A stretch of DNA of 64,000 nucleotides from Escherichia phage rV5_ev147. The stretch lies in sequence record LR597647; one strand, written 5' to 3'. Each line of letters opens with the position of its first letter. The first letter of the stretch is position 1. The notes under the pieces were generated by a model. That model had not been told where the DNA came from. It did no database searches and saw only the letters and a program-made list of their open reading frames with translations. A program made the position numbers and the translations under genes. Below are positions 9,377-30,952 of the stretch, piece by piece.

Positions 9377-11688
9377 TCACCAAGGTAATTAAAAGCAACG
9401 GATGTGAAGTGGCATTCGATCCAGAACGTTTAAATAAGGCAGCTATTTTCGGTGACGATGGTAACGGCAATTGGTCACATATTGCACTGGATGCCTACAA
9501 GCGGTTGTATGATGGATGTACAACCAAAGAAGTTAACCAAGCTATTATAGACTCTTGTGTTAGCCGTAAAGACGAAGCACATTCCCGTATGGCTGGTCGT
9601 GTTCTTATTGGTCAGATCTATAAAGAGGCTTTTGGAGGGTTTACAAAGATCCCTTCCTTACCATCATTTTACAATGACATGGTTGAGAAAGGTTATTGGG
9701 AGGATATGGGTTATAGCTTTACCGAGCTAAACACTTTAGACGCTGTTATTGACCACAGTAAAGATCTCGGTTATGGCTATGCAGTCCTTAAACAGTTTCG
9801 CGACAAATACGGGATCAAGGATACTCTTAAAGACACCTTGTTTGAATCTCCCCAGATGATGTTTATGGGGATAGCAATGGCTGTCATGAAGAATATGCCG
9901 AAAGAACGTCGTATCAACGATGTTGTAAAATTATACACTTATCTGTCCGACTTAAAGATCAATGCCCCAACACCGTACTTAAACGGGCTGCGCACAGGTA
10001 AGACAGGGTATGCATCTTGTTGTGTAATAAAAGCTGACGATACAGCAAAATCTATTGGTGTGGCACGTGAAGTTGCGTACACAATGACGGTTAACCAAGC
10101 AGGTATCGGCTACTACTTATCCTCAAGATCTGCAGGCGATGGTGTTCGTGGTAACACTATTAAACATATGGGTAAGATTCCATATTATCGAGGTATTGAT
10201 GCTGGGGTTAAGGAGAACAGACAACAATCACGTGGTGGTTCTGCAACAGTATCATTCCTTGCACTGGACCCGCAGATTGATGAGCTAATCCGTTTGAGAA
10301 ACCCTATGACTGTTGCTTCAAAAAGAATCAACACCATGGACTACTCCATCGGTATTAATAGGTCGTTTATCAACCGTGTGGCTAAGAATTTAGATTGGAT
10401 GCTTGTTTCTTATAAGCACGCGCCTCAACTGCATGAGGGTATCTTCACCATGTCTATGGAGGAGTTTGATGCAGAGGTTGATCGTATTGCTAAAGATGAC
10501 AGTATTCCTAAAACATGGATCCGAGCTAGAGATCTTGCTGTTGAACTGATCACGCAGCGCACTGAGGTGGGAAGGCTGTACGTATACTGGACAGATGAGA
10601 TGAATAGACATACACCTTTTAAAGATGTGATCTATTCAAGTAACCTGTGTGCAGAAATAGCCCTCCCGACAAAAGGCTATTCAGATATGCGTAATATCTT
10701 CAAGTACGATGCTGATGATGGAGAGGTTGCATTGTGCTTCCTGTCATCTCTTGTAGCTGGAAGGGTTACTCCAGAGGAGTATGAGGATGTTGCATACTAC
10801 ACGGTGCTTATGATTGACAATGTTATGGAAATCATGACATATCCGTATGAAAATATGGAAAGCACAGTTAAAAAACGCAGATCCATCGGGGTTGGCCTTA
10901 CCAATGTTGCACATTTTATTGCCAGCCACAAGGTTACTTACGGGTCTCCTGAAAGTAAACAGCTCGTTCACGATCTTGCAGAACTTCACAGCTACAGCTT
11001 GCATAAGGCAAGTTTACGGTTGGCAAAAGAGCGTGGTGTCTGCGAGTGGATGCATAAAACAAAATATCCAGAAGGTTGGTTACCAATCGACACCTATAAC
11101 AAAGAGGTCGATAGCGTGGTGAAAGATCCTTCTCTTAAACAGGATTGGGAAGGGTTACGTAAAGAAATCATTGAGAATGGTGGGCTACGTAATAGCGTTC
11201 TTGAAGCATATATGCCTAATGAAAGCTCTTCGCTGGCAACAAACACCACTAACGGGGTTTATCCTGTCCGTGAGCACATTATCTTTAAAAAGTCGCCACA
11301 AGGGCAGGTGCTGTTTATCGTTCCTGACTATGATGAGTTGAAAGAGTATTACACCTCGGCTTGGGACGTTGATACTAACGACATGATCGATATGTATGCC
11401 GTGATTCAAAAATTCACAGGTCAGGCAATCAGCGCGGATTTATACATAGACTACACCAAGTTGAAAGATGGTAAAATTTCAATGAAGGAGCAGTTAGGGT
11501 ACCTTATCCGTGCCACTAAATTCGGGATGAAGACATGGTATTATTTAAACTCTAGGGTTGGTGCTGGTGACTCCTTGGCAGAGGAACTTCATGCCAAGAA
11601 ACAGGCTGAAGATGAAACCAGAAAGAACTATCCTTTGATTGCAGATAGTTCAGTTGAAGATCCGTATTGCGAAAGCTGTGCACTATAA
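9373..11688 (+). CDS. nrdA: ribonucleotide reductase class Ia large subunit NrdA (TTG start)
   Basis: N-terminal ATP-cone, catalytic SNLCAEI motif, C-terminal CESC pair; GGAGG RBS. Confidence 0.9.
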   Translation: MITKVIKSNGCEVAFDPERLNKAAIFGDDGNGNWSHIALDAYKRLYDGCTTKEVNQAIIDSCVSRKDEAHSRMAGRVLIGQIYKEAFGGFTKIPSLPSFYNDMVEKGYWEDMGYSFTELNTLDAVIDHSKDLGYGYAVLKQFRDKYGIKDTLKDTLFESPQMMFMGIAMAVMKNMPKERRINDVVKLYTYLSDLKINAPTPYLNGLRTGKTGYASCCVIKADDTAKSIGVAREVAYTMTVNQAGIGYYLSSRSAGDGVRGNTIKHMGKIPYYRGIDAGVKENRQQSRGGSATVSFLALDPQIDELIRLRNPMTVASKRINTMDYSIGINRSFINRVAKNLDWMLVSYKHAPQLHEGIFTMSMEEFDAEVDRIAKDDSIPKTWIRARDLAVELITQRTEVGRLYVYWTDEMNRHTPFKDVIYSSNLCAEIALPTKGYSDMRNIFKYDADDGEVALCFLSSLVAGRVTPEEYEDVAYYTVLMIDNVMEIMTYPYENMESTVKKRRSIGVGLTNVAHFIASHKVTYGSPESKQLVHDLAELHSYSLHKASLRLAKERGVCEWMHKTKYPEGWLPIDTYNKEVDSVVKDPSLKQDWEGLRKEIIENGGLRNSVLEAYMPNESSSLATNTTNGVYPVREHIIFKKSPQGQVLFIVPDYDELKEYYTSAWDVDTNDMIDMYAVIQKFTGQAISADLYIDYTKLKDGKISMKEQLGYLIRATKFGMKTWYYLNSRVGAGDSLAEELHAKKQAEDETRKNYPLIADSSVEDPYCESCAL

Positions 11689-17690: not shown

Positions 17691-18740
17691 ATGAATTTAA
17701 CACCTCGCAGAACCATGGTACACGGCATGAAAGAAAAACAGAACGGTTTCGAACCTATGAGTAATAAAATGTTTGGTATGCCGGGCGGTATCATGGAAAC
17801 ATACAGCTACCCAACACCTGTTGTTGACCACGTTCTTTATATCGACGATTTGGAAGACTTACAAGATCATATGTCTCGTCTGCAGACGATCCGTATGGCT
17901 CAGCCGGAAGAAAGCATTCGGGTGATCATCAATAGCCCTGGGGGTTGCGTGCACATTGCAATGGCTTATCTGCAGGCATTCCGAGAGTCTCAGGCAAGCG
18001 TTGTTGCACATGCTGAAGGGATGTGCTGCTCTGCTGGAACAATCTTATGGCTTGGTTGTAAAGAACGTACTGTGGCTCCGGACACAGAGTTTATGTTCCA
18101 CTACTATCAAGGTGGCACTTATGGTAACGGTGTGAACATGAATACTCAGGTCAGCTACTGGAAAAAACGTTTTGAACGCCTGATCGAAAAATACTACGGT
18201 GGGGTGCTGACAGAAGATGAGATCGCATCCATCACAGCTGGTGGCGAAGTGTGGTTGGACGGAGAAGAGCTGGCAGCACGCACTGGAGCTATTATTCTGG
18301 ATGAAGGCAACATACAACGCATCCAGAACGGACAAAAACCGAAAAAGCTTCTGGCAAAAGGTGATGAAGAAGGCGTGTTAGGTGAAGCAGGTCTTCCGGA
18401 GATTCACCAGTGCACATCTTTAGATGAGTTAGTTCATGCTGTTGAATCTGCAAAAGCGGGTGGTTCGAAAGGTGATGTTCACACTGTGTTCCTGAATCTG
18501 CAGATGGAAAGTGGCGAGACCGTCAGAATTGCCCTGAGTGAGATTACTTCAGAAGATCTGCAGAGATTCTCTGTCGTTGAACTTCAGGATATTCTGTCTC
18601 AATTGAAGACTACTCTGAACGGCGGTGAAGAGGTTAAGGTGAAAGATAAGACTCGCAAGCGTCTGGTGGACAATATTATTAAAACAGCAAAAGAGCTCAA
18701 TGAAAAAATCCTGGGTGCAGGAATTGTCGAAGAAGCTTAA
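17691..18740 (+). CDS. ClpP-like serine peptidase with C-terminal extension
   Basis: INSPGG and GMCCSAG motifs resembling ClpP/S49; 349 aa. Confidence 0.55.
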   Translation: MNLTPRRTMVHGMKEKQNGFEPMSNKMFGMPGGIMETYSYPTPVVDHVLYIDDLEDLQDHMSRLQTIRMAQPEESIRVIINSPGGCVHIAMAYLQAFRESQASVVAHAEGMCCSAGTILWLGCKERTVAPDTEFMFHYYQGGTYGNGVNMNTQVSYWKKRFERLIEKYYGGVLTEDEIASITAGGEVWLDGEELAARTGAIILDEGNIQRIQNGQKPKKLLAKGDEEGVLGEAGLPEIHQCTSLDELVHAVESAKAGGSKGDVHTVFLNLQMESGETVRIALSEITSEDLQRFSVVELQDILSQLKTTLNGGEEVKVKDKTRKRLVDNIIKTAKELNEKILGAGIVEEA

Positions 18741-19642: not shown

Positions 19643-19882
19643 ATGTACAAGTCATTTTCAATCTACTCAAGACAGGCGAAACACTGCACAGAGATCCTGA
19701 TCACTCAGAAAAAATCTGTGGAAGGTGAGTGGGAATATCACCATAAAATGTTGCGTCCAGACTGGGTTTTTGATAGACTTATTGCTATGATCCCTCTCGG
19801 AGAAGTATACCCTCTGACAGCCCATCGCGATGCTTGGGATTTAATTGATTACATAGATTCATTTAAGGAGCCTAGATTATGA
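19643..19882 (+). CDS. hypothetical protein
   Basis: RBS agggggt before ATG 19643; promoter-like TTGACA 19589. Confidence 0.4.
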   Translation: MYKSFSIYSRQAKHCTEILITQKKSVEGEWEYHHKMLRPDWVFDRLIAMIPLGEVYPLTAHRDAWDLIDYIDSFKEPRL

Positions 19883-20277
19883 AGATTGAGATTACTAAAG
19901 AAGGTAAGAAAGTGTCCGGCAACTATGCAACAGTAATTCGGGATTTAATGTTTGAAGCCACCAAGATCGGTACATCTAAAGTTGGTCAAACTGTTAGTGT
20001 GAAAAGTAATATCTCCACAGGAGAGAAGGTATTCATTGTGGTCAAAGGGCAGGATCCCGTGGAAGGAACAGTGGGCCGAGGTGGCTACCTGTGCATTTCT
20101 GAAGAGCCGCGTATGTTAGTGGCTGACGCTACTATGGGTGGGAAACGTGTGTGCGAGGCGGATGAGGTAATGATTATCCAACCTGTTGATCCAGATGACC
20201 CAGCAACTTGGGTGGTAGGAAATGAAATCTTCTCTTTAGAAGAGTTATCCTTCCCAGCACCGCGCTCTGTTCAGTAA
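19879..20277 (+). CDS. hypothetical protein (possible distant member of small-protein family 1)
   Basis: MKIEIT N-terminus. Confidence 0.4.
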   Translation: MKIEITKEGKKVSGNYATVIRDLMFEATKIGTSKVGQTVSVKSNISTGEKVFIVVKGQDPVEGTVGRGGYLCISEEPRMLVADATMGGKRVCEADEVMIIQPVDPDDPATWVVGNEIFSLEELSFPAPRSVQ

Positions 20278-20314
20278 TAATTTATCTTACCAGGGACGGT
20301 AGGTAGGAGGTAGC

Positions 20315-20548
20315 ATGAAAGTTAAATTTCTTACAGATTTAGGGTACCCTTCCTTGGTTGACTGTGTTGGTAAAATTGTGGAAGCAAAACGGCTATCTGC
20401 AAACGAGAATGTTGTCCTGGTTAAAGGGAAGGATTTACTAGCTGCAGGTGCAGAGTCTGGCAGGATCTCTCCTGATTATATGTATTACCTATCTTTAAGT
20501 AATCTGCCAGAGCGAGGCGGTAAAGGCCTTGAAGTTGTGGAGGAGTGA
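20315..20548 (+). CDS. small acidic protein, paralog family 1
   Basis: MKVKF..GKDLLAAGA..EVVEE. Confidence 0.5.
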   Translation: MKVKFLTDLGYPSLVDCVGKIVEAKRLSANENVVLVKGKDLLAAGAESGRISPDYMYYLSLSNLPERGGKGLEVVEE

Positions 20549-21078
20549 CAGGTATGCTTCTGATTAACTGGGAAGACCTCTATGGGGACAAAGACCCTGT
20601 TGCGTTTGTTGATCGTAGGTGGAGATACACTGAAGAACAACTGGCGGCAAAAAATTTAACTGCAAAACGCAGAAAGATCATCCAGTGCAAGTACAAATAC
20701 GCACAGTTTGCTGCAAAAGTGTCTCCACAAATCGAGAACTTTGTGCTTAAATTGTATGACGAGTACCTCAAATTCAAATTGGATTTTGTGCAGGTGTACC
20801 GTGCACAGGTACGACCAGATACCAACATATGTAGATGGAAGGTTGTTTGTGAAGGTAAAGATTTGCCGCTCAGCTTGACAATTGAGTGGCGTTATGGGTA
20901 TCATGAGTGTGGTCTGTATGATATTTGGGATGTCATTGTAGATCCTGCTAAGCATCTGAACACAGAGGAGCTGGAATATATCAATAAGGTTATTCTCGAT
21001 ATGTTTTTCAGCTACACACATGAAAACTCTGAGAAAGAACGGGATAATTTTCTTGACACCCTCAGCGACCATTTGTAG
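20545..21078 (+). CDS. hypothetical protein
   Basis: ORF. Confidence 0.45.
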   Translation: MTGMLLINWEDLYGDKDPVAFVDRRWRYTEEQLAAKNLTAKRRKIIQCKYKYAQFAAKVSPQIENFVLKLYDEYLKFKLDFVQVYRAQVRPDTNICRWKVVCEGKDLPLSLTIEWRYGYHECGLYDIWDVIVDPAKHLNTEELEYINKVILDMFFSYTHENSEKERDNFLDTLSDHL

Positions 21079-21108
21079 TATACAATTTAACCTACAAAGG
21101 GAGGACCA

Positions 21109-21336
21109 ATGAGTATAAATGTTGTGCTAATAGGTTACCTGGTAATGTCCGTTATAACAGCGGTATTCTTGACAGGTGTATGCATCGTGTCCAGACGAAG
21201 GGTGAAGTTTGATGATTTTATCACCATCATCACTGCTGCACCTTTTTGGCCTGTTGTTATCTTCATCGTAATAATGTGCCTAGTTGATTACTACAAGAAT
21301 ATCAGGAAGGAGAGTAGGGATGGAGACCGCACCTAA
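21109..21336 (+). CDS. small membrane protein
   Basis: two hydrophobic segments; RBS aagggagg. Confidence 0.45.
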   Translation: MSINVVLIGYLVMSVITAVFLTGVCIVSRRRVKFDDFITIITAAPFWPVVIFIVIMCLVDYYKNIRKESRDGDRT

Positions 21337-21472
21337 AACTATCTATACTGTTCTTAAAGAGATTGCGTTCTACGCAGATCTTAGCCAGGCACCTTTATGG
21401 GAAAAGAGCATGTATTTAAAATGGTGCGTTAATTTAGGGAGACCTTCCAGTGTTTCAAGCCATGTTTATTGA
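21320..21472 (+). CDS. hypothetical small protein
   Basis: RBS aggaaggag before ATG 21320. Confidence 0.3.
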   Translation: METAPKTIYTVLKEIAFYADLSQAPLWEKSMYLKWCVNLGRPSSVSSHVY

Positions 21473-21555
21473 GATGCTATCTGGGATATTGTTACTGGTA
21501 GCCATCTTAGGTGGTGCAGTTCTGATGTATAACTATCTTGAAAAAGGAGACAGCA

Positions 21556-21741
21556 ATGGTAAAAAATAAATCTTTAGAGCAGGCTGAAAACCTTCTCCAC
21601 GAGCTGGTAAAGGAGTGGAAAGTTGAATACTCAGATTTTAATGCACGAGAGGGTGAAGATTATTGGCCTACGGAGCGCTCAGAGGGCGAATGGTATCAAG
21701 ATTTTATAGAGTGGTTATATCAGACGTGCGATGAGGGGTGA
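21556..21741 (+). CDS. hypothetical acidic protein
   Basis: RBS aaaggaga before ATG 21556. Confidence 0.4.
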   Translation: MVKNKSLEQAENLLHELVKEWKVEYSDFNAREGEDYWPTERSEGEWYQDFIEWLYQTCDEG

Positions 21742-22208
21742 CGATGTTTGTTAAATATGTAAAAACGTGCCTCAACAGTCTTGGCAGAGAGCATTGGTAC
21801 ACCTTGCTTGAAAAAGGGGAAATTTTAACAAAATCTGGAAAGATAACTTTGATACCTCTTGATAGTAAAGGTAAAGACCCGTCACGACTTGTTATAGATG
21901 ATTACGTTACAGGTGTGACGTTCGAGGTCTCTGTGGAGAGGTTAATACGCAGAGCTGGCGGCCCTTATGACCGAAGAGAGTATGTTTTCGATTCCGTTAC
22001 AGAGATGGGGGAGCATCCGTCTTTAATGTTCAGGATGGTAATCAGAGATATGAGGTCATCTATAGATAGGATCGTAAAGGACATTAAGGAACCTTTTAGA
22101 GTAAAAGTTAAGAAGTTTTTCGATTCTAAGATTAACATACTCGCCGTTGCACTAGGTGTAGTTCAACTTCTGTTAATTTTGCACTATTTTGAACTACTAT
22201 TTAAGTAG
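21738..22208 (+). CDS. hypothetical protein with C-terminal hydrophobic anchor
   Basis: ORF; C-terminal ILAVALGVVQLLLIL. Confidence 0.45.
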   Translation: MTMFVKYVKTCLNSLGREHWYTLLEKGEILTKSGKITLIPLDSKGKDPSRLVIDDYVTGVTFEVSVERLIRRAGGPYDRREYVFDSVTEMGEHPSLMFRMVIRDMRSSIDRIVKDIKEPFRVKVKKFFDSKINILAVALGVVQLLLILHYFELLFK

Positions 22209-22270
22209 TAGTTGAGATATGGCACAAAGGATGTGCCATAGTGAAATAAACTAAGAAAGAGGTAGAGAGA

Positions 22271-22618
22271 ATGCCAAAGATTAAAACGTTATTACTGTGG
22301 GTAGCTGTTTTAGCTTTTATAGGGTACTGGACTTGGGAAACTGAATTAAAAGATATCGGATATACCAGTCTTGAGAGCAAGGCGTGCATTGGCATAACCG
22401 ATGCGTTCAGGCAAAATGCTATGGATCACGAATGTGTTGATGCAGATATAGATGAGAAACTGTCTAAGGACAAAGATTTTTACCATGGGCATGCTTTACT
22501 TGATAGTGGTGACACTGTAGAGTTCTGGTCGTGGTTTCGTGAAGATGGAACAATAAAAACAGCAGTAAAGATCTCTAACAAAGAGTTAATGCTGTTGCAG
22601 CAAAAGGAGGCTCAATGA
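22271..22618 (+). CDS. hypothetical protein with N-terminal TM/signal segment
   Basis: RBS agaggtagagag; TLLLWVAVLAFIGYWTW. Confidence 0.45.
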   Translation: MPKIKTLLLWVAVLAFIGYWTWETELKDIGYTSLESKACIGITDAFRQNAMDHECVDADIDEKLSKDKDFYHGHALLDSGDTVEFWSWFREDGTIKTAVKISNKELMLLQQKEAQ

Positions 22619-22902
22619 TCTGGATATCCTATGCTGATGGCACCATGCTGTATACTGCAGGTACCAGATATGAAGTTCAGGAGAACGATAAAAAATTTAT
22701 CGTAAAAACATTTGACAAGGACGACAACCTTTTGCTAGAATTGACTTACAAAGTTGGAGAGGTATCCAATATCCAGTTGGATTGTGGTCATAAAGATAAT
22801 CCACTCAAAAAACCTGGAGTAGGTAAGGCTTCAGAAGAACGTCTGTCTCGTATTGCAGAAAGCGTTTCTCCCCAAAAATCTAAGAAGAGGACTAGAAAAT
22901 GA
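22615..22902 (+). CDS. hypothetical protein
   Basis: overlapping stop/start. Confidence 0.45.
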   Translation: MIWISYADGTMLYTAGTRYEVQENDKKFIVKTFDKDDNLLLELTYKVGEVSNIQLDCGHKDNPLKKPGVGKASEERLSRIAESVSPQKSKKRTRK

Positions 22903-23093
22903 AAAACTTACGTTTTAACACTTATTACTACAACACATTGAATGATTTGTATTATATTGTTCGAAGTAAAAGTCCTGAAACAGTCCTATTCTGCCGCGAA
23001 CCTTTCAAAGGGGAGGAAGTAGAGTCTGAGATGAATGTTAGCCAGATCACCTCTTTGTTGCTCTCAGGCGCAATGGAAGAAGCAATATTCTAA
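22899..23093 (+). CDS. hypothetical protein
   Basis: ORF. Confidence 0.4.
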   Translation: MKNLRFNTYYYNTLNDLYYIVRSKSPETVLFCREPFKGEEVESEMNVSQITSLLLSGAMEEAIF

Positions 23094-23111
23094 ACCAGGC
23101 AGGAGGGTTTT

Positions 23112-23300
23112 ATGAAGCACTATTGCCTGTCTGGTAGAATGGGTGCAGATTGTGATTGGGTTTTCTTAAAACTTGTCAGCATTCGAGAGTTCATCCCAGA
23201 GGAAGAGCAAGAAAGCGAGCTGATGTCATGGATCAACCATTACGGTAACACTTTTCGGCATGTTAAGGTAGAAGAGTTGCCAAGCGAGGCTGAATTATGA
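23112..23300 (+). CDS. hypothetical protein
   Basis: RBS aggagggt. Confidence 0.4.
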   Translation: MKHYCLSGRMGADCDWVFLKLVSIREFIPEEEQESELMSWINHYGNTFRHVKVEELPSEAEL

Positions 23301-23593
23301 AACTTTTTGAGTGGTTTAAAAAGTTTAAATATAAAGCTGTAGCCATCGTGCCGTGGTCCATTCAGTGGGTTGATGAAGGTGGTCTACCGATACCTGGTGA
23401 CAAAGATACTGGGTACTGGATTATGATGGAGAACGGGTTTGGAAAGCGAAAGTATACGTGCACAAACTCTACTCGATCTGCACTTAATAGAGTGCCTGGT
23501 TACAAACTTATGGTTGTGTGGAAAATGTCAGGCGTGCCTCCAGCCAATGCTCAATTTCTTACTGACAATCCGACCACGGTAGAGGGAGATTGA
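23297..23593 (+). CDS. hypothetical protein
   Basis: ORF. Confidence 0.45.
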   Translation: MKLFEWFKKFKYKAVAIVPWSIQWVDEGGLPIPGDKDTGYWIMMENGFGKRKYTCTNSTRSALNRVPGYKLMVVWKMSGVPPANAQFLTDNPTTVEGD

Positions 23594-23877
23594 TAATGAA
23601 AAAGATTAACAGTAGTGAAGTAGAGTTTAAACTTGTCGGAAAAGGCACTTACTGGGAAGTTCGTCAAAAGGTATATTTGTTCGGTCTTATTCCCTACTGG
23701 TCTAAATTCTACTGGGGAGCTAACGAGTTGGGAAGATACGCCACCAAATCAATGGCACTTATTGGTATAGCAGAGTACATTGCAGCCCGAGACAGGGTTG
23801 GAACCACTTATTACTACACTGCTGACGATATTCGTAACAGTGTTTACGTCCCACAACCACCTGATGGAGACCGTTGA
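23590..23877 (+). CDS. hypothetical protein
   Basis: ORF. Confidence 0.45.
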   Translation: MIMKKINSSEVEFKLVGKGTYWEVRQKVYLFGLIPYWSKFYWGANELGRYATKSMALIGIAEYIAARDRVGTTYYYTADDIRNSVYVPQPPDGDR

Positions 23878-24101
23878 TGAAAGTTAAAGTTTTAGATTCA
23901 AGCTTCTATATTGGTCAGGAGCCTTTAGTAGGAAAAGTGTTTACTGCTGTCCCTAACGAAGATTACCCTGACCTTTTAAAAATAAAAGGAGCAGATCTTA
24001 TTGCCGCTGGTGCATCTCAGGAATGCTTTGACAGTCAGTGGACCTATAACTTTGCCCTAGGTGAGGATGTAGAGGTAGTGGAGGACGATCATGAAGGTTA
24101 A
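23874..24101 (+). CDS. small acidic protein, paralog family 1
   Basis: MKVKVL..GADLIAAGA..EVVEDD. Confidence 0.5.
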   Translation: MMKVKVLDSSFYIGQEPLVGKVFTAVPNEDYPDLLKIKGADLIAAGASQECFDSQWTYNFALGEDVEVVEDDHEG

Positions 24102-24345
24102 AATTCTTGATTCTAACGTCTACTTGGGACAATCCTTCCTGAATGGAAAGGTCGTTCCTGCGGTATACTTTGAAGGGTTGCCGTGGGATGATCCTGTGCG
24201 GCAACATCACAGTTATGTAGGCCACAACGTGGTGTTTATCTTGGGATCAGACCTGATCACCGCTGGTGCACCTGAATATTATTTCGGGGAAGAGTCCTAT
24301 TATGCCTTTGGGGCAGGGTCAGATGCAGATATTGTAGAACTGTGA
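24091..24345 (+). CDS. small acidic protein, paralog family 1
   Basis: MKVKIL..GSDLITAGA..IVEL. Confidence 0.5.
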   Translation: MKVKILDSNVYLGQSFLNGKVVPAVYFEGLPWDDPVRQHHSYVGHNVVFILGSDLITAGAPEYYFGEESYYAFGAGSDADIVEL

Positions 24346-24357
24346 TGGGTAACCGTT

Positions 24358-24756
24358 GTGAAAAATAAACTATTCAAAGTTACAATGAAAATTCGCGGAG
24401 CTTGGAGCGTAAAGCAAGGGCGTATCCCAGAATTTGAGAAAGACTTCTACGTAGTCTCCACCTCGGAGGAGGCTGCATGCTGGCAGGCTGGCTATGCCTA
24501 TGCAAGAACCTGGTACGAAGGATACCAGACCGGGGGATATGACGGAGAAATTATCAGCAGGGGTGTGGAAGAAATTAATGTGTTGACAAGTGAAAAAGTT
24601 TTTGTTATAGTGCATCCAGATTCCAGAGTGAAGCATTACTGGAACGCCAGAACAAAAACTTGGACACCGTTTGCAGATTCTGCTACGCCACTTTTAAACC
24701 AGAAAGCTCTTGACTCTGCCCCAAGTTATGGGATTGTTGAAGAAAAGCTAAACTGA
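24358..24756 (+). CDS. hypothetical protein, paralog family 2 (start uncertain)
   Basis: C-terminal HPDSRVKHYWNARTKTWTP shared with ORF 26562-26957. Confidence 0.45.
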   Translation: MKNKLFKVTMKIRGAWSVKQGRIPEFEKDFYVVSTSEEAACWQAGYAYARTWYEGYQTGGYDGEIISRGVEEINVLTSEKVFVIVHPDSRVKHYWNARTKTWTPFADSATPLLNQKALDSAPSYGIVEEKLN

Positions 24757-24773
24757 AACAGTGAGGTACTAAC

Positions 24774-25064
24774 ATGATGGATTTAGTTCTGGACACGGAT
24801 AACACCGGAGAGTTTAAAAAGGATGGTGTAACAAGCGTTGACCAATCCTTCCCTGCCAAGATTGACTCAAAATGGACCTACAAGTTTGATGGAGAGATCT
24901 TCGCAAATGATGAGAAGGTTGTAGATGCTGCAGCCATTTTGAACGCTCTAGGGTACGACCCTGTGAATTCTTTGATCAAGGATCCTGTTGAGTTTGCAGA
25001 GTATGTTCGAAAAATGGCAGATCTTGCTGTGGATATTTTAAAAACTATCGACGACAAGCTGTAA
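24774..25064 (+). CDS. hypothetical acidic protein
   Basis: RBS gtgaggt. Confidence 0.45.
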   Translation: MMDLVLDTDNTGEFKKDGVTSVDQSFPAKIDSKWTYKFDGEIFANDEKVVDAAAILNALGYDPVNSLIKDPVEFAEYVRKMADLAVDILKTIDDKL

Positions 25065-25070
25065 AAACTG

Positions 25071-25099
25071 TTGACACAACGCTTCAGATTTAGTATCAT
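25071..25099 (+). promoter_or_regulatory. sigma70-like promoter (TTGACA-17-TATCAT) followed by leader hairpin
   Basis: hexamers plus hairpin AGAGGG-tttggtt-CCCTCT at 25110-25135. Confidence 0.5.
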
Positions 25100-25146
25100 T
25101 GTTTTAAAAGAGGGTTTGGTTCCCTCTTCTTTAAAAGGAACACGTT

Positions 25147-25464
25147 ATGCAAATTGAAATCACTGGCAACGTAGAAATCACTGAAGGTATGGTGTCTTTC
25201 ATTTCCCACAAAATGTCTAAGCTGGAGCGTTTGCACCCATCTGCCAACTATGCACGTGTGAGTGTAAAAGTTGAAAATGATCACCAGGAAGTTATGGCGT
25301 TCATTTTTGACAATTCTGGAAAAGAAGTTATTGCCAAGGCTAAAGGCAGTGATGCTTACGAGGCAACTGACCGTATGGTAGATGTTGCAGCACGTCAGCT
25401 GGCTAAATGCGGTGGAAAGAAAGGTAAGGGGAAAGGCAAAGTAAAGATTGACTTTGGAGAATGA
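25147..25464 (+). CDS. hpf: ribosome hibernation promoting factor / RaiA (YfiA) family homolog
   Basis: MQIEITGNVEITEGM...KLERL...VSVKVEN...G.DAYEA.DRMVDVAARQLAK follows E. coli HPF (MQLNITGNNVEITEAL...) along its length. Confidence 0.8.
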   Translation: MQIEITGNVEITEGMVSFISHKMSKLERLHPSANYARVSVKVENDHQEVMAFIFDNSGKEVIAKAKGSDAYEATDRMVDVAARQLAKCGGKKGKGKGKVKIDFGE

Positions 25465-25601
25465 GGTGCTACAATGGGTGTGATTGAGAAATTAGTCCCA
25501 AATGTAGAGATTGCATGCTTTGAAATTATGTTTGCAATCGCAGTTGTAGTTAATGTGTTAGGTTACGGCTATTAATATCAAATAATTGAGGAGACCTCTA
25601 A

Positions 25602-25871
25602 ATGAAAATTAAATTATTCAAAACTGAGCTGGCAGACAAAAATTGTGGTCTGGTTGAAGGCATGATTGTTGAAGCACAACCAGTGGACTATATGAAGGTG
25701 GTTCGTGATGCCCTGGGTGAAGGTTTTGATCTGATGGAGCCAGCCCTGCGGGAAGATGTTATCGAGATGGCTAAAAAGCACACACCTGAAGGTTTGGTGG
25801 TGTTTATTGCACCGGGTAACGGAGAAGAGTTGATTGTAACTCCTGATGTGTATGAGATTGTAGAGGAATAA
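25602..25871 (+). CDS. small acidic protein, paralog family 1
   Basis: MKIKLF..C-terminal YEIVEE. Confidence 0.5.
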   Translation: MKIKLFKTELADKNCGLVEGMIVEAQPVDYMKVVRDALGEGFDLMEPALREDVIEMAKKHTPEGLVVFIAPGNGEELIVTPDVYEIVEE

Positions 25872-25961
25872 TCCTGCTTGGATTAGCATACTTCCTCGAT
25901 AAGGAAGGTTTGTAATTATTTGTGGGAAAGGAATCCCATCTCTTACCAGAGGTGATACTAT

Positions 25962-26225
25962 ATGATTGTTTATTTTAAAACTTCAGGTGGATACCCTGAT
26001 TCTCAAAGCTTGATCGGAAAAACGTGCACAGCATACTCACCTCTTGATGAGGAGGTAAGCGATATTCTACGAAATATGTATCGGATTGATCCCCAAGAAG
26101 CTTTTGATCAAAACCTTGTATTTGTCAAGGGCTCAGACATGAAGTCTTTGGGAGCATTCCCTGAAGCAGATGATGATGCCGTTTATTCGTTCATGACCCC
26201 TTTTGAAGCTATGGTTGTTGGGTGA
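25962..26225 (+). CDS. small acidic protein, paralog family 1 (divergent)
   Basis: VFVKGSDMKSLGA segment. Confidence 0.45.
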   Translation: MIVYFKTSGGYPDSQSLIGKTCTAYSPLDEEVSDILRNMYRIDPQEAFDQNLVFVKGSDMKSLGAFPEADDDAVYSFMTPFEAMVVG

Positions 26226-26229
26226 TAAT

Positions 26230-26562
26230 ATGAAAGTACGCTTTATTGGTGAAACAATTCCTGTGCATCTCAGGTCGCCTGAAGATTCTGCGGATCTTGC
26301 ATCTCAGAAGGCGAGAGGTTATGATAAGAAAGTAATCTCAACCGATGTAGAACTTGAGGCTACTAGTCTACCTGACCCTGCTGCATTCTTTAATCATTAT
26401 GGATACTATTTCAGCAATCTGATGAATATCGGTGAGCTTGTGTTTATTAGTGGTGGAGAAATTGTTAGCAAGCTTGGCGGCGATCCGGATATCTTTCATG
26501 AAACCTGTCCTTTTGCATTTGTGGTAGGTTCAGATGTGGAAGTTATTGAGGAGGTGCGGTAA
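26230..26562 (+). CDS. small acidic protein, paralog family 1
   Basis: MKVRF..VVGSDVEVIEE. Confidence 0.45.
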   Translation: MKVRFIGETIPVHLRSPEDSADLASQKARGYDKKVISTDVELEATSLPDPAAFFNHYGYYFSNLMNIGELVFISGGEIVSKLGGDPDIFHETCPFAFVVGSDVEVIEEVR

Positions 26563-26957
26563 TGGTAAGCCTATACCGTGTTGAGTATAGCTCAGATACT
26601 GTATACAACGTAAGAAGCAAAGATCGCAGCGACAGAGTGCAAGAAATGTATGTTCTTGCCGACAGTCCGTTATCTGCAGCGTTCAAGGCAGGGGCTCTTG
26701 CATCTCGTTGGAAATTTGAAGGTGGATCTTTCTATGAAGAAACCCTTGAAGATTCTGTTGTTATTTCTTCTGTAGAGGTTTCAGATGACTACGAAGGGAA
26801 AAAGTTCGTAATGCGGCACCCACACAGCAACATTGCGTACTACTGGGATGTTCTGAACAACGAGTGGACCCCAGATCTTCAGAAGGCTACTGTGCTAACA
26901 CCGTTTTTGGCAGATAAGTTCCCACCAGAAGGTAATTTATCCGCACTGTTTCAGTAA
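26562..26957 (+). CDS. hypothetical protein, paralog family 2
   Basis: HPHSNIAYYWDVLNNEWTP shared with 24358-24756. Confidence 0.45.
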   Translation: MVSLYRVEYSSDTVYNVRSKDRSDRVQEMYVLADSPLSAAFKAGALASRWKFEGGSFYEETLEDSVVISSVEVSDDYEGKKFVMRHPHSNIAYYWDVLNNEWTPDLQKATVLTPFLADKFPPEGNLSALFQ

Positions 26958-26974
26958 TTTTCTTGCACACAGGT

Positions 26975-27004
26975 GTTGACAACGCCAACCCTGTGTGAAA
27001 TAAT
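26975..27004 (+). promoter_or_regulatory. promoter (TTGACA-18-AATAAT) bracketed by 8-bp inverted repeat CACACAGG/CCTGTGTG
   Basis: IR at 26967-26974 and 26990-26997 flanks the -35. Confidence 0.45.
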
Positions 27005-27033
27005 ACCTTCATCTTAACAAGACAGGGGACCGA

Positions 27034-27294
27034 TTGATGAAGATTAAATTGAAAAACCTTGAAACGGCAGAGATTCAGGACGGTGTTGATTTCCGTTCTA
27101 AAGATGGTGACATCTTAGAGGTAAATATTCCAACCTACGAGCTGATTAAAGGTTTTGGCAACGTTCCGGAAGAGGATATTACAGAAATTCTTATGATGTT
27201 GATTCTTGACGGAACTGTGTTTGTAGGTGAAGGTGAGAACGCTATTGCAATCCCAGGCCATTTTTATGAAGTAGTTGACGAAGAGGTGCTGTAA
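27034..27294 (+). CDS. small acidic protein, paralog family 1
   Basis: MKIKLKN..YEVVDEEVL. Confidence 0.5.
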   Translation: MMKIKLKNLETAEIQDGVDFRSKDGDILEVNIPTYELIKGFGNVPEEDITEILMMLILDGTVFVGEGENAIAIPGHFYEVVDEEVL

Positions 27295-27645
27295 ATGAAA
27301 GTAGAAATTACCGGTTTTGATGTGAATGTGGTTCCGGAAGATATTTTAGCTAAACTTCCAGAAGGTTTTGGTAACGGCGTTGTGGTGGATGCTGTTCCTC
27401 CTACCAAAGACATTCTGCTGCAGTATGGTGTAGCAGAGGAAGATGTCGATAAAGTTCTTACAATGATGGCAATCGATCGTGTTGTCGTTGTTAAAGGTCT
27501 CGATAATTTTGAGAGTGATCCCCTGATTATTCGTGGAGATGACTACAAAATCATCGATAATGAAGGCCAAGAGTTCTATGAACCTTGTGCAGAAGATATT
27601 CTTAACTTATTACTGGAAGCAGGTACCGAAGAGGAGGACGAATAA
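27295..27645 (+). CDS. small acidic protein, paralog family 1
   Basis: MKVEITG, very acidic C-terminus. Confidence 0.5.
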   Translation: MKVEITGFDVNVVPEDILAKLPEGFGNGVVVDAVPPTKDILLQYGVAEEDVDKVLTMMAIDRVVVVKGLDNFESDPLIIRGDDYKIIDNEGQEFYEPCAEDILNLLLEAGTEEEDE

Positions 27646-27974
27646 TGAAGATTGACCCGTTACTGAAGGCTCGTGCAGAAAAAGCGTACACCATTAAGTT
27701 GACCAACTTGGTTCCTACTTGTCATCCGGATGTAGGTTGGCCCGAAGGTTTGGTGGAGGGAACTGTAACAGCTGCATACCTTCCTAACATCAAATACCTC
27801 ATGGAAATCTTGGAGCTGGATGAGGAAACGGCAGAAGAGTTCCAGTTGGACATGAAACAAAGTGGGACTCTGGTTATTCACGGGTGGTACAATACTAAAG
27901 ATGCAGAAGACCCTCTGGTAACTTCTAATCTGGCATATGAAATCTTAGGGCCTTTGAACCTGGAGGAAGACTAA
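27645..27974 (+). CDS. hypothetical acidic protein
   Basis: ATGA overlap. Confidence 0.45.
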   Translation: MKIDPLLKARAEKAYTIKLTNLVPTCHPDVGWPEGLVEGTVTAAYLPNIKYLMEILELDEETAEEFQLDMKQSGTLVIHGWYNTKDAEDPLVTSNLAYEILGPLNLEED

Positions 27975-28261
27975 TGAAAGATCTGGTTAAGATTAAGATT
28001 AAAGATACCAATGGAGAACTCAGCCATTTTGGAATTAATGATGGTGACGAGCTGATCGCACACCTGCCTACCAAGGAGGTTGTAAGCAAAGCAGTTGCCG
28101 GAGAAGAAGCTGCAATGCAGGCTGCAGGTGTGGATGAAAACTATGTAGCTATGTGCATGTGCCGAGATCAGGTTGTTCTGTATAAAGCGTATCGACCAAA
28201 CGGAGCCACGGAGTGGCTTGTATTCCGACCCGAAGGATATGAAATCTTAGAGGCACTATGA
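27974..28261 (+). CDS. hypothetical protein
   Basis: ATGA overlap. Confidence 0.45.
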   Translation: MKDLVKIKIKDTNGELSHFGINDGDELIAHLPTKEVVSKAVAGEEAAMQAAGVDENYVAMCMCRDQVVLYKAYRPNGATEWLVFRPEGYEILEAL

Positions 28262-28350
28262 TAAATCTTGCCAAGGTTGCAACGGCACTGTTAATTATTT
28301 GCTGGTCAGTAACCTTAACACTGTGTCTTGTATTTCAGTGAGGTGCTTGT

Positions 28351-28769: not shown

Positions 28770-29021
28770 ATGACGAAGATTGACTTGAATGCTGGTGATC
28801 ATGTTGTTGTCAAATGCGTTGGAGATTATCTTGGATTCACAATCGGCAATACTTACGAGGCGGTAGTGGCGAAGGTTTATCATGATAAAGTCCTCAGTCT
28901 TGTATTTGACTGTGATGATGACGGAGATGACCGTTACGTCTGTGAGGTGCTGGCTCGTGACGATAGTGAAGACCAGAAATTCCTGGTTATTGAACTGAAC
29001 GGTATTTTTGTAGAACGTTAA
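28770..29021 (+). CDS. hypothetical protein
   Basis: RBS aaggagcg before ATG 28770. Confidence 0.45.
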   Translation: MTKIDLNAGDHVVVKCVGDYLGFTIGNTYEAVVAKVYHDKVLSLVFDCDDDGDDRYVCEVLARDDSEDQKFLVIELNGIFVER

Positions 29022-30736: not shown

Positions 30737-30952
30737 ATGAAGATAGAGATATTTGGTGGAGCTGACAACACTCGTGGCCTGATTTACCTTGAATTCGATG
30801 AATCATACCTGCCAGAGGTGTTAAATATAGACTCTGTTGCTGAGGCTTTGGGAGTAAACCCTAAAGAACTCCACTCTTGTGCTGAGATCGATGGTTGGGA
30901 AGAGACCATGAACATTGATTTCAGTGAAGTAGAGGATGAACCGCTGGACTGA
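30737..30952 (+). CDS. small acidic protein (family 1-like)
   Basis: RBS agaggag; MKIEIFGG, acidic C-terminus. Confidence 0.45.
   Translation: MKIEIFGGADNTRGLIYLEFDESYLPEVLNIDSVAEALGVNPKELHSCAEIDGWEETMNIDFSEVEDEPLD

Follow-up and report, generated by a model that had tools for sequence, protein, structure and literature searches.

Three families of small paralogous proteins in a small-gene block of an rV5-like Vequintavirus

Twelve small plus-strand genes of Escherichia phage rV5_ev147 (sequence record LR597647, of which a stretch of 64,000 nucleotides, hereafter the window, was analysed) form, on sequence comparison, three paralog families of five (A), five (B) and two (C) genes. The locus had been described in a first-pass annotation, made from the letters alone, as a tandem array in which one small acidic protein fold occurs in eight to eleven copies. 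A tandem array of paralogous small proteins is indeed present, but it consists of two independent five-member families and a duplicated partner gene instead of one fold: similarity between the open reading frames (ORFs) is well above chance within each family and undetectable across A and B. No description of the three families was found in the literature. Region 19800-28300, which holds all twelve genes, matches Escherichia phage rV5_ev156 at 100% identity and about 120 further Vequintavirus records at 98-99%, and by its sequence the window is an rV5-like Vequintavirus.

Membership of the three families

Two search sets were used, namely the 461 ORFs of the window on both strands (iterative hidden Markov model, HMM, searches) and the 236 plus-strand ORFs (all-against-all blastp). 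In the latter, the significant pairs were 24091-23877 (2e-13), 24358-26562 (2e-7), 20315-23877 (5e-6) and 27034-27295 (2e-3), where genes are named by their first position. For family A, the iterative HMM search converges on exactly 20315, 23877, 24091, 25962 and 26230, and these five window genes match the profile over its full length, including the GxDL-I-x-AGA motif; the signature of the family can be written MKVK…GK…G-x-DL-I-AAGA…Y-F…EVVEE. When orthologs from a divergent relative are added, hhalign joins most pairs at 77-99%.

All five family A genes lie on the plus strand. The first, 20315-20548 (ORF127 in rV5, 77 amino acids, isoelectric point (pI) 5.4), carries an insert, LPERGGKG, before the last strand, matches phrog_5009 at E 8e-36 and aligns with 23877, 24091 and 25962 at 89-99% in hhalign. 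It is followed at a distance by 23877-24101 (ORF140, 74 amino acids), found by the iterative HMM, and by 24091-24345 (ORF141, 84 amino acids), which shares an 11-nt overlap with 23877, carries a short insert between strands 2 and 3 and is placed by HMM, phrog_5009 and hhalign. The remaining two are longer: 25962-26225 (ORF147, 87 amino acids) has a helical insert and enters the HMM at E 1.3e-6, and 26230-26562 (ORF148, 110 amino acids) has the largest insert and enters at E 1.4e-4. This last gene is tied to the family via 23877 and 24091 (hhalign 82-95%), with only 5-7% against 20315 or 25962.

Family C corresponds to a second pair already noted in the first-pass annotation for shared residues, and that pair is real: 24358-24756 (plus strand; ORF142; 132 amino acids from the GTG at 24358, or 123 from the ATG at 24385) and 26562-26957 (plus strand; ORF149, 131 amino acids) match each other at E = 3e-9 in phmmer and 92.8% in hhalign, and both belong to phrog_7379.

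Family B is more divergent. With single ORFs as seeds, only 27037-27295 is significant, and 27974, 27645 and 25602 are borderline. In a leave-one-out test, 25602, 27037, 27295, 27645 and 27974 each scored 14-34 bits against a profile of the other four ortholog groups, a level reached by none of 2000 composition-preserving shuffles and by none of 456 other ORFs (the best of which gave 9.2 bits). Because these scores exceed all shuffles and all other ORFs, the membership of family B can be regarded as settled. Its core, at 80-91% in hhalign, consists of 27037-27294 (ORF150, 85 amino acids, net charge -13; 88-91% to 27295), 27295-27645 (ORF151, 116 amino acids, net charge -21, with an acidic C-terminal extension; placed by leave-one-out and hhalign) and 27645-27974 (ORF152, 109 amino acids; 14.4 bits, 0/2000 shuffles; 80-82% to 27295), the last of which had been overlooked in the first-pass annotation. 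Attached to this core at 15-44% are 27974-28261 (ORF153/154 in rV5, 95 amino acids, 21 bits) and 25602-25871 (ORF146, 89 amino acids), the most weakly attached member (15.2 bits, 0/2000 shuffles; 35-44% to 27974 and 21-23% to 27037). All five are plus-strand genes.

Three further ORFs had been proposed as weaker relatives, and one of them, 27974, does belong to family B. The other two drop out: 19879-20277 (plus strand; ORF126, 132 amino acids, phrog_5748) has no significant similarity to A, B or C, and 30737-30952 (plus strand; 71 amino acids, very acidic, starting MKIEI) is a non-member as far as can be demonstrated, with at most 9.2 bits to the B profile, not above shuffles, and at most 4% in hhalign.

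The listed ORFs exist as genes in their own right. They are annotated as separate coding sequences in rV5_ev156, Murica, FV3, SYGMH1, naswa and rV5, and are kept as separate ORFs in Murica, FV3, SYGMH1, naswa and Aya; every one of them has a separate start codon and ribosome-binding site, and the pooled ratio of nonsynonymous to synonymous substitution rates (dN/dS) is 0.05-0.27 for every member, which denotes purifying selection at a level similar to that of neighbouring genes (the pooled value of 23877 is inflated by a paralogous match in phage Bas59). For these reasons they are not frameshifted pieces of fewer, longer genes.

Two annotation problems touch family B. In the rV5 record (DQ832317, 9026-9296) the ortholog of 27974 is split into two overlapping ORFs, 153 and 154, either by a frameshift or by a sequencing error, while the gene is intact in the window and in other genomes. 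Orthologs of 25602 (e.g. naswa_172) are labelled in several GenBank records as a second 'sigma 54 modulation factor'. The possibility that 25602 is a ribosome hibernation factor was rejected, as it has no Pfam match and no S30AE domain (PF02482); the true ribosome hibernation factor (HPF) is the adjoining gene 25147-25464, and the label is probably an annotation carry-over error.

Predicted folds, charge and the relation of A to B

For family A, a confident AlphaFold2 model of 23877 (15-sequence alignment; predicted local distance difference test, pLDDT, 91.6; predicted template modelling score, pTM, 0.79) has five strands, with the DLIAAG motif as a short helix after strand 3. It superposes on known small barrels over about 55 residues at a root mean square deviation of 2.5-3.7 Å, and the modelled fold is thus that of a generic SH3-like small beta-barrel, with a five-stranded barrel in common with KOW domains of Spt5/NusG, PsaE, the retroviral integrase C-terminal domain and eukaryotic SH3 domains. 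Assignment of family A to the KOW or NusG/Spt5 family itself was rejected, since there is no Pfam match at E <=1 and the resemblance exists only at the level of fold. Foldseek searches of the model against BFVD returned uncharacterised small proteins of many Enterobacterales phages, and an 87-residue BFVD ortholog of 25962 (Shigella phage CM1) matches it with a template modelling (TM) score of 0.79.

The model of family B (27037; AlphaFold2, 27-sequence alignment; pLDDT 85.8, pTM 0.74) is likewise predicted to be a five-strand barrel, with a two-helix insert (order b1 b2 [two helices] b3 b4 b5). Its BFVD matches are a protein of Vibrio phage Vc1 (TM 0.73) and a 95-residue Vequintavirus protein (E 2e-3) that is probably the ortholog of 27974. 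A weak BFVD match of model B is an 83-residue protein of Shigella phage CM1 (TM 0.52, E 0.018), equal in length to the block gene 28770-29021; on that equality of length (the match itself has not been mapped to the gene), 28770-29021 may be another small barrel, and by sequence it is unrelated to families A and B (hhalign at most 5.5%). Neither model matches a catalytic family, nor any solved structure, in fold or sequence, beyond generic SH3-type barrels.

The similarity of the two models raises the question of whether A and B are one ancient superfamily that has diverged past sequence recognition, in which case a single ten-member expansion would be correct in essence. Strand order is the same in both models, the helices of B sit between strands 2 and 3 (the insert site of the longer A members), both families have an MK[IV]K strand at the start and a [YE][EV][IV][VL]E strand at the end, and their genes are interleaved within one block. 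Against this, no A-B pair exceeds 10% in hhalign, even when divergent orthologs are included; members score 0-4 bits against the profile of the other family, no better than shuffles; and model B reaches the best BFVD match of model A only at rank 16, with a TM score of 0.37. The candidate bridge 25962, with its helical insert, was rejected (hhalign at most 2%).

The shared termini can also be explained without homology. Among the 25 block genes that belong to none of the three families, 8 start with MK, and the codons of the terminal Glu-Glu (GAGGAG) often serve as the Shine-Dalgarno sequence of the next gene, as upstream of 20554, 24091, 26562, 27295, 27645 and 27974. Since MK is common in the block and GAGGAG does double duty, these features, on which the first-pass annotation had drawn together with the G-x-DL-I-AAGA segment (in fact confined to family A), overstated the unity of the set. 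In family A, nevertheless, the E-[VI]-[VI]-E-E ending makes up the last strand and is also conserved among unrelated phages. Altogether, the models suggest that A and B share a general topology, and descent from one superfamily is possible, if rather doubtful.

Acidity had been emphasized in the first-pass annotation, together with a suggested role in mimicking DNA or binding host factors. The proteins are enriched in acidity (mean pI 4.4 for A and B, against 6.1 for other block genes), most members having a pI of 4.05-4.8 and a net charge of -6 to -21, but the property is neither unique nor constant. If the proteins were DNA mimics, an acidic surface resembling DNA would let them block restriction enzymes, nucleoid proteins or other host factors that bind DNA, in the manner of Ocr, ArdA and Arn, which are likewise small acidic phage proteins whose synthesis is expected early in infection. 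The charge density of B27295 and B27037 (-0.15 to -0.18 per residue) would suit such a role, and a Dam-type methyltransferase gene lies just upstream, in a neighbourhood that may hold restriction-related functions. However, charge in family A is not conserved (-1 in A20315, and anywhere from +1 to -11 in distant members, whose pI is as high as 7.75), its conserved residues are glycines and hydrophobic core positions instead of acidic ones, and unrelated block genes are equally acidic. Dense negative charge is thus not a constant of these proteins (+1 to -21 overall) and, unlike in the case of Ocr, ArdA and Arn, charge is variable, and nothing in sequence, profile or fold links them to a known mimic. 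Because charge is not conserved, the idea is weak for family A; it is plausible only for the most acidic B proteins (27295, -21; 27037, -13), and for the set as a whole mimicry of DNA is distinctly unlikely. A host-factor-binding role for A and B is plausible.

Organisation, conservation and distribution

The gene order is A … A-A-C … HPF … B, A-A-C, B-B-B-B, in which 24358 is the third gene of the first A-A-C cassette and 26562, whose start overlaps the stop of 26230 (TAATG), that of the second. Within the sub-operons the junctions are TGATG, TAATG, TAAATG or overlaps of up to 11 nt, with gaps of -11 to +12 nt, and by this arrangement both A-A-C cassettes and B-B-B-B are translationally coupled. 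Six plus-strand sigma-70-like sites with 11 of 12 consensus positions and a perfect TTGACA are present (20875, 22712, 24583, 25071, 26976 and 31080), two of which are annotated in DQ832317: 25071-25099 (TTGACA-17-TATCAT, 'P144' of rV5), upstream of HPF, and 26976-27004 (TTGACA-17-AATAAT, TG-extended, 'P150'), upstream of B-B-B-B. The region holds 43 promoter-like sites, some of them inside genes, compared with 30.7 ± 5.4 in shuffles, and this excess is consistent with transcription of the block by the host polymerase. The literature searched yielded neither a transcriptome nor a functional screen that includes these genes.

The array is stable across the Vequintavirus genomes compared. Of about 121 records, every one has a match to B and C, 117 have one to 23877 (the query for A), and in 114 of 121 no less than 80% of the 8.5-kb region is covered. 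Eighteen 'Campylobacter phage' records (MG0656xx; host Campylobacter jejuni) are 98-99% identical to this region of an E. coli Vequintavirus; their host labels look doubtful, and contamination or co-isolation may be the cause.

In a metagenomic relative (L016, 128 kb), 5/5 A and 5/5 B genes each have one ortholog in the corresponding position, at 29-74% identity, and C is present in a single copy; after its first A-A pair, an unrelated 96-residue ORF stands in place of C. The paralogous copies are 19-40% identical to one another. As all ten A and B orthologs are present in so divergent a relative, the duplications must be old. A recent duplication at the DNA level was rejected, the only trace being one 30-nt direct repeat (D3; 23988-24017, plus strand), which encodes the G-x-DL-I-AAGA motif of 23877 and is 80% identical to 24244-24273 in 24091. 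In L016, an extra 98-residue gene (11092-11388; PF27050, Phage_P22_Y8K6) separates the second C gene from the B array.

Repeat D3 is also the crossover point of natural hybrid genes. In two natural hybrids (P0014 and P0019) the N-terminal half of 23877 is joined to the C-terminal half of 24091, and in a third (P0028) a 20315-type N-terminus to the C-terminus of 23877; the crossover lies in the DLIAAGA motif in 3/3 cases. A larger change is found in Bas59 (phage EduardKellenberger, isolated on E. coli K-12), a viable phage that lacks the segment ~20951-24670; lost with it are A23877, A24091, the greater part of C24358 and some 13 further small genes. At a 13-nt imperfect homology, GYAGATYCTGCTA (window 20926-20960 and 24661-24695; L006 14612-14646), the deletion joins the 5′ part of 20554 and the tail of C24358 in one reading frame. 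One A-A-C cassette is dispensable in the laboratory. The resulting hybrid ORF is annotated 'putative glycosidase', a name for which no support was found.

That dispensability, and the natural occurrence of hybrid genes that reduce copy number, would fit a view in which the paralogs are functionally redundant remnants of old duplications, have no specific role and persist by drift or as spacers or translational-coupling elements. Such a view is hard to reconcile with the purifying selection on every paralog, all of which are intact, with the presence of the array in nearly all Vequintavirus records, with a positional ortholog of each A and B paralog in a relative as distant as L016, and with the conservation of family A across unrelated phage lineages. 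We consider it highly improbable. Fast evolution of the arms-race type was not seen, as dN/dS is no higher than in neighbouring genes.

Outside the rV5-like phages, word-indexed searches with A, B and C returned only rV5-like sequences. An exhaustive profile search with family A over 1.84 billion representatives, by contrast, gave 45 proteins at E<1e-3, a few of which are false positives (the repeat proteins P0091, P0110 and P0129). The true matches are mostly of 63-80 amino acids, share the signature MKVKLLNDGGY.G…GKVV.A…G.DLI.AGA…Y.F…E.EVVEE and align with the Vequintavirus members at 99.6% in hhalign. By tblastn, distant family A genes occur in phages that infect Proteus, Klebsiella, Pantoea and Aeromonas, as well as in mEp phages of E. 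coli, always in a block of small accessory genes: among the small ORFs of a Proteus phage, in the gap between Prim-Pol and AAA_24 ATPase genes, in the slot that separates the antiterminator gene Q from the lysis genes in lambdoid prophages and in mEp010, with some members among the small ORFs of replication or early modules. Two unrelated phages each have two dispersed copies, and the domain is also fused within single polypeptides, twice in P0102 and P0122 and three times in P0097. Pfam returned nothing for the additional regions of P0127, P0116, P0124 and P0113, which gave no functional clue. For B and C, tblastn found no homologs outside Vequintavirus, the only match beyond it being that of model B, at the level of fold, to the Vibrio phage Vc1 protein.

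Existing resources hold part of this grouping. The window proteins match PHROGs profiles end to end at E 1e-31 to 1e-76 (phrog_5009 for A20315, A23877 and A24091; phrog_7379 for the C pair; and phrog_13920, 13661, 11868, 12359, 12155, 12457 and 12794), all of 'unknown function'. PHROGs thus already joins three A genes and the C pair, but it distributes family A among three of its groups and gives each of the five B genes one of its own; it has no record of the 5 + 5 paralogy, of the A-A-C cassettes or of the link to homologs in other phages.

The families belong to a block of about 37 small plus-strand genes in about 11 kb (19.3-31 kb), all labelled 'hypothetical' or 'Phage protein' except HPF (25147-25464; PF02482, E 1.8e-12), the sole functionally annotated gene and also the only match when A, B, C and the neighbouring genes were searched by sequence and profile against Pfam, NCBIfam and PDB. 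A flip in GC skew near 30-31 kb marks the end of the transcription unit. The rV5 genome paper counts '88 mainly small ORFs' in the region, and paralogy is absent from its text (PMC3606486). Within the block, the basic 154-residue protein of 21744-22208 (gp133 of rV5) is called 'HNH endonuclease' in other records and has nothing significant in Pfam; by mass spectrometry it was reported in the same paper as a predominant virion protein, with 15.9% coverage. Upstream of the block lie nrdD/G, phoH, clpP-like and dam-like genes, the ClpP-like protease gene (17691-18740, 349 amino acids) being close to it. A 2026 preprint on CBASS-activating phage proteases (PMC12991175) reportedly mentions Vequintavirinae.

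Possible roles and what the families offer

The locus is best pictured as two ancient families, each expanded on its own, of small single-domain proteins that are mostly acidic and predicted to be beta-barrels, together with a duplicated partner gene. The block appears to be transcribed from host sigma-70-type promoters; the products of each coupled sub-operon would be co-produced at fixed ratios and function as sets, probably in the form of hetero-oligomers or multivalent binders; and these products would bind proteins of the host or of competing elements in takeover or counter-defence, being neither enzymes nor parts of the virion. None of six family tryptic peptides (four of A, two of B) was found in the rV5 virion mass spectrometry table of 19 proteins (PMC3606486), and the families are non-structural.

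It is the translational coupling, the tandem fusions within single proteins elsewhere and the accessory-slot contexts that point towards co-produced binding modules, possibly hetero-oligomeric, that act on host or competitor proteins; the fusions in P0102, P0122 and P0097 hint, in the manner of Rosetta-stone proteins, that A copies work together. This reading is a tentative one, which we hold to be possible though short of probable, and several points weigh against it. No experimental or homology-based link to any target exists, and searches for anti-defence homology in the general libraries Pfam, NCBIfam, PHROGs and PDB (no dedicated anti-defence library was searched) gave nothing. The ordinary dN/dS, together with an array that is stable across 121 genomes, is unlike the fast turnover typical of arms-race anti-defence genes. 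Moreover, coupling and fusions suggest co-assembly but fall short of proof, and the timing of expression is deduced from promoter-like sequences.

An alternative target would be the machinery of gene expression, with the proteins docking on the ribosome, RNA polymerase, NusG partners or Rho as barrels of the KOW or ribosomal-protein type, alongside the phage HPF encoded in the middle of the array. A KOW-like fold and the neighbouring HPF gene do suggest a link to translation or transcription, but the resemblance goes no further than fold, and we consider this very unlikely.

A more ambitious form of the binding-module reading can also be formulated, in which the sub-operons would encode hetero-oligomeric small-barrel assemblies that constitute an unrecognised modular class of takeover or anti-defence effectors, with one binding surface per paralog and family A as a widespread core domain of Enterobacterales phages (single, dispersed, tandem or fused). 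As a whole, this is unlikely. Close known parallels are the paralogous accessory or early gene sets of large virulent phages and amplified counter-defence genes, such as tifA in T4 (PMC9391042), which are likewise small non-structural genes, multiplied in an accessory region and dispensable in the laboratory. The copies described here, by contrast, are ancient and individually conserved instead of recent head-to-tail amplifications, and none is known to act in counter-defence.

Paralogous accessory genes are common in large virulent phages, a familiar feature of their genomes, and the copy number that had been singled out as unusual is therefore notable but not extraordinary. Families A, B and C are an uncharacterised instance of this pattern, a useful lead and no surprise. 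Their recognition has several practical consequences: (i) about a third of an approximately 11-kb 'hypothetical' block (12 of 37 genes) collapses into three families, so that an opaque region in a group of phages used in therapy and typing is reduced to a few testable units, (ii) family A, which has no Pfam entry yet recurs in unrelated phages and in multi-domain fusions, merits definition as a domain and (iii) the natural deletion in Bas59 and the natural hybrid genes provide ready starting material for genetics. Should the products turn out to act in counter-defence or takeover, the two coupled arrays would offer a compact model of how phages diversify small binders.

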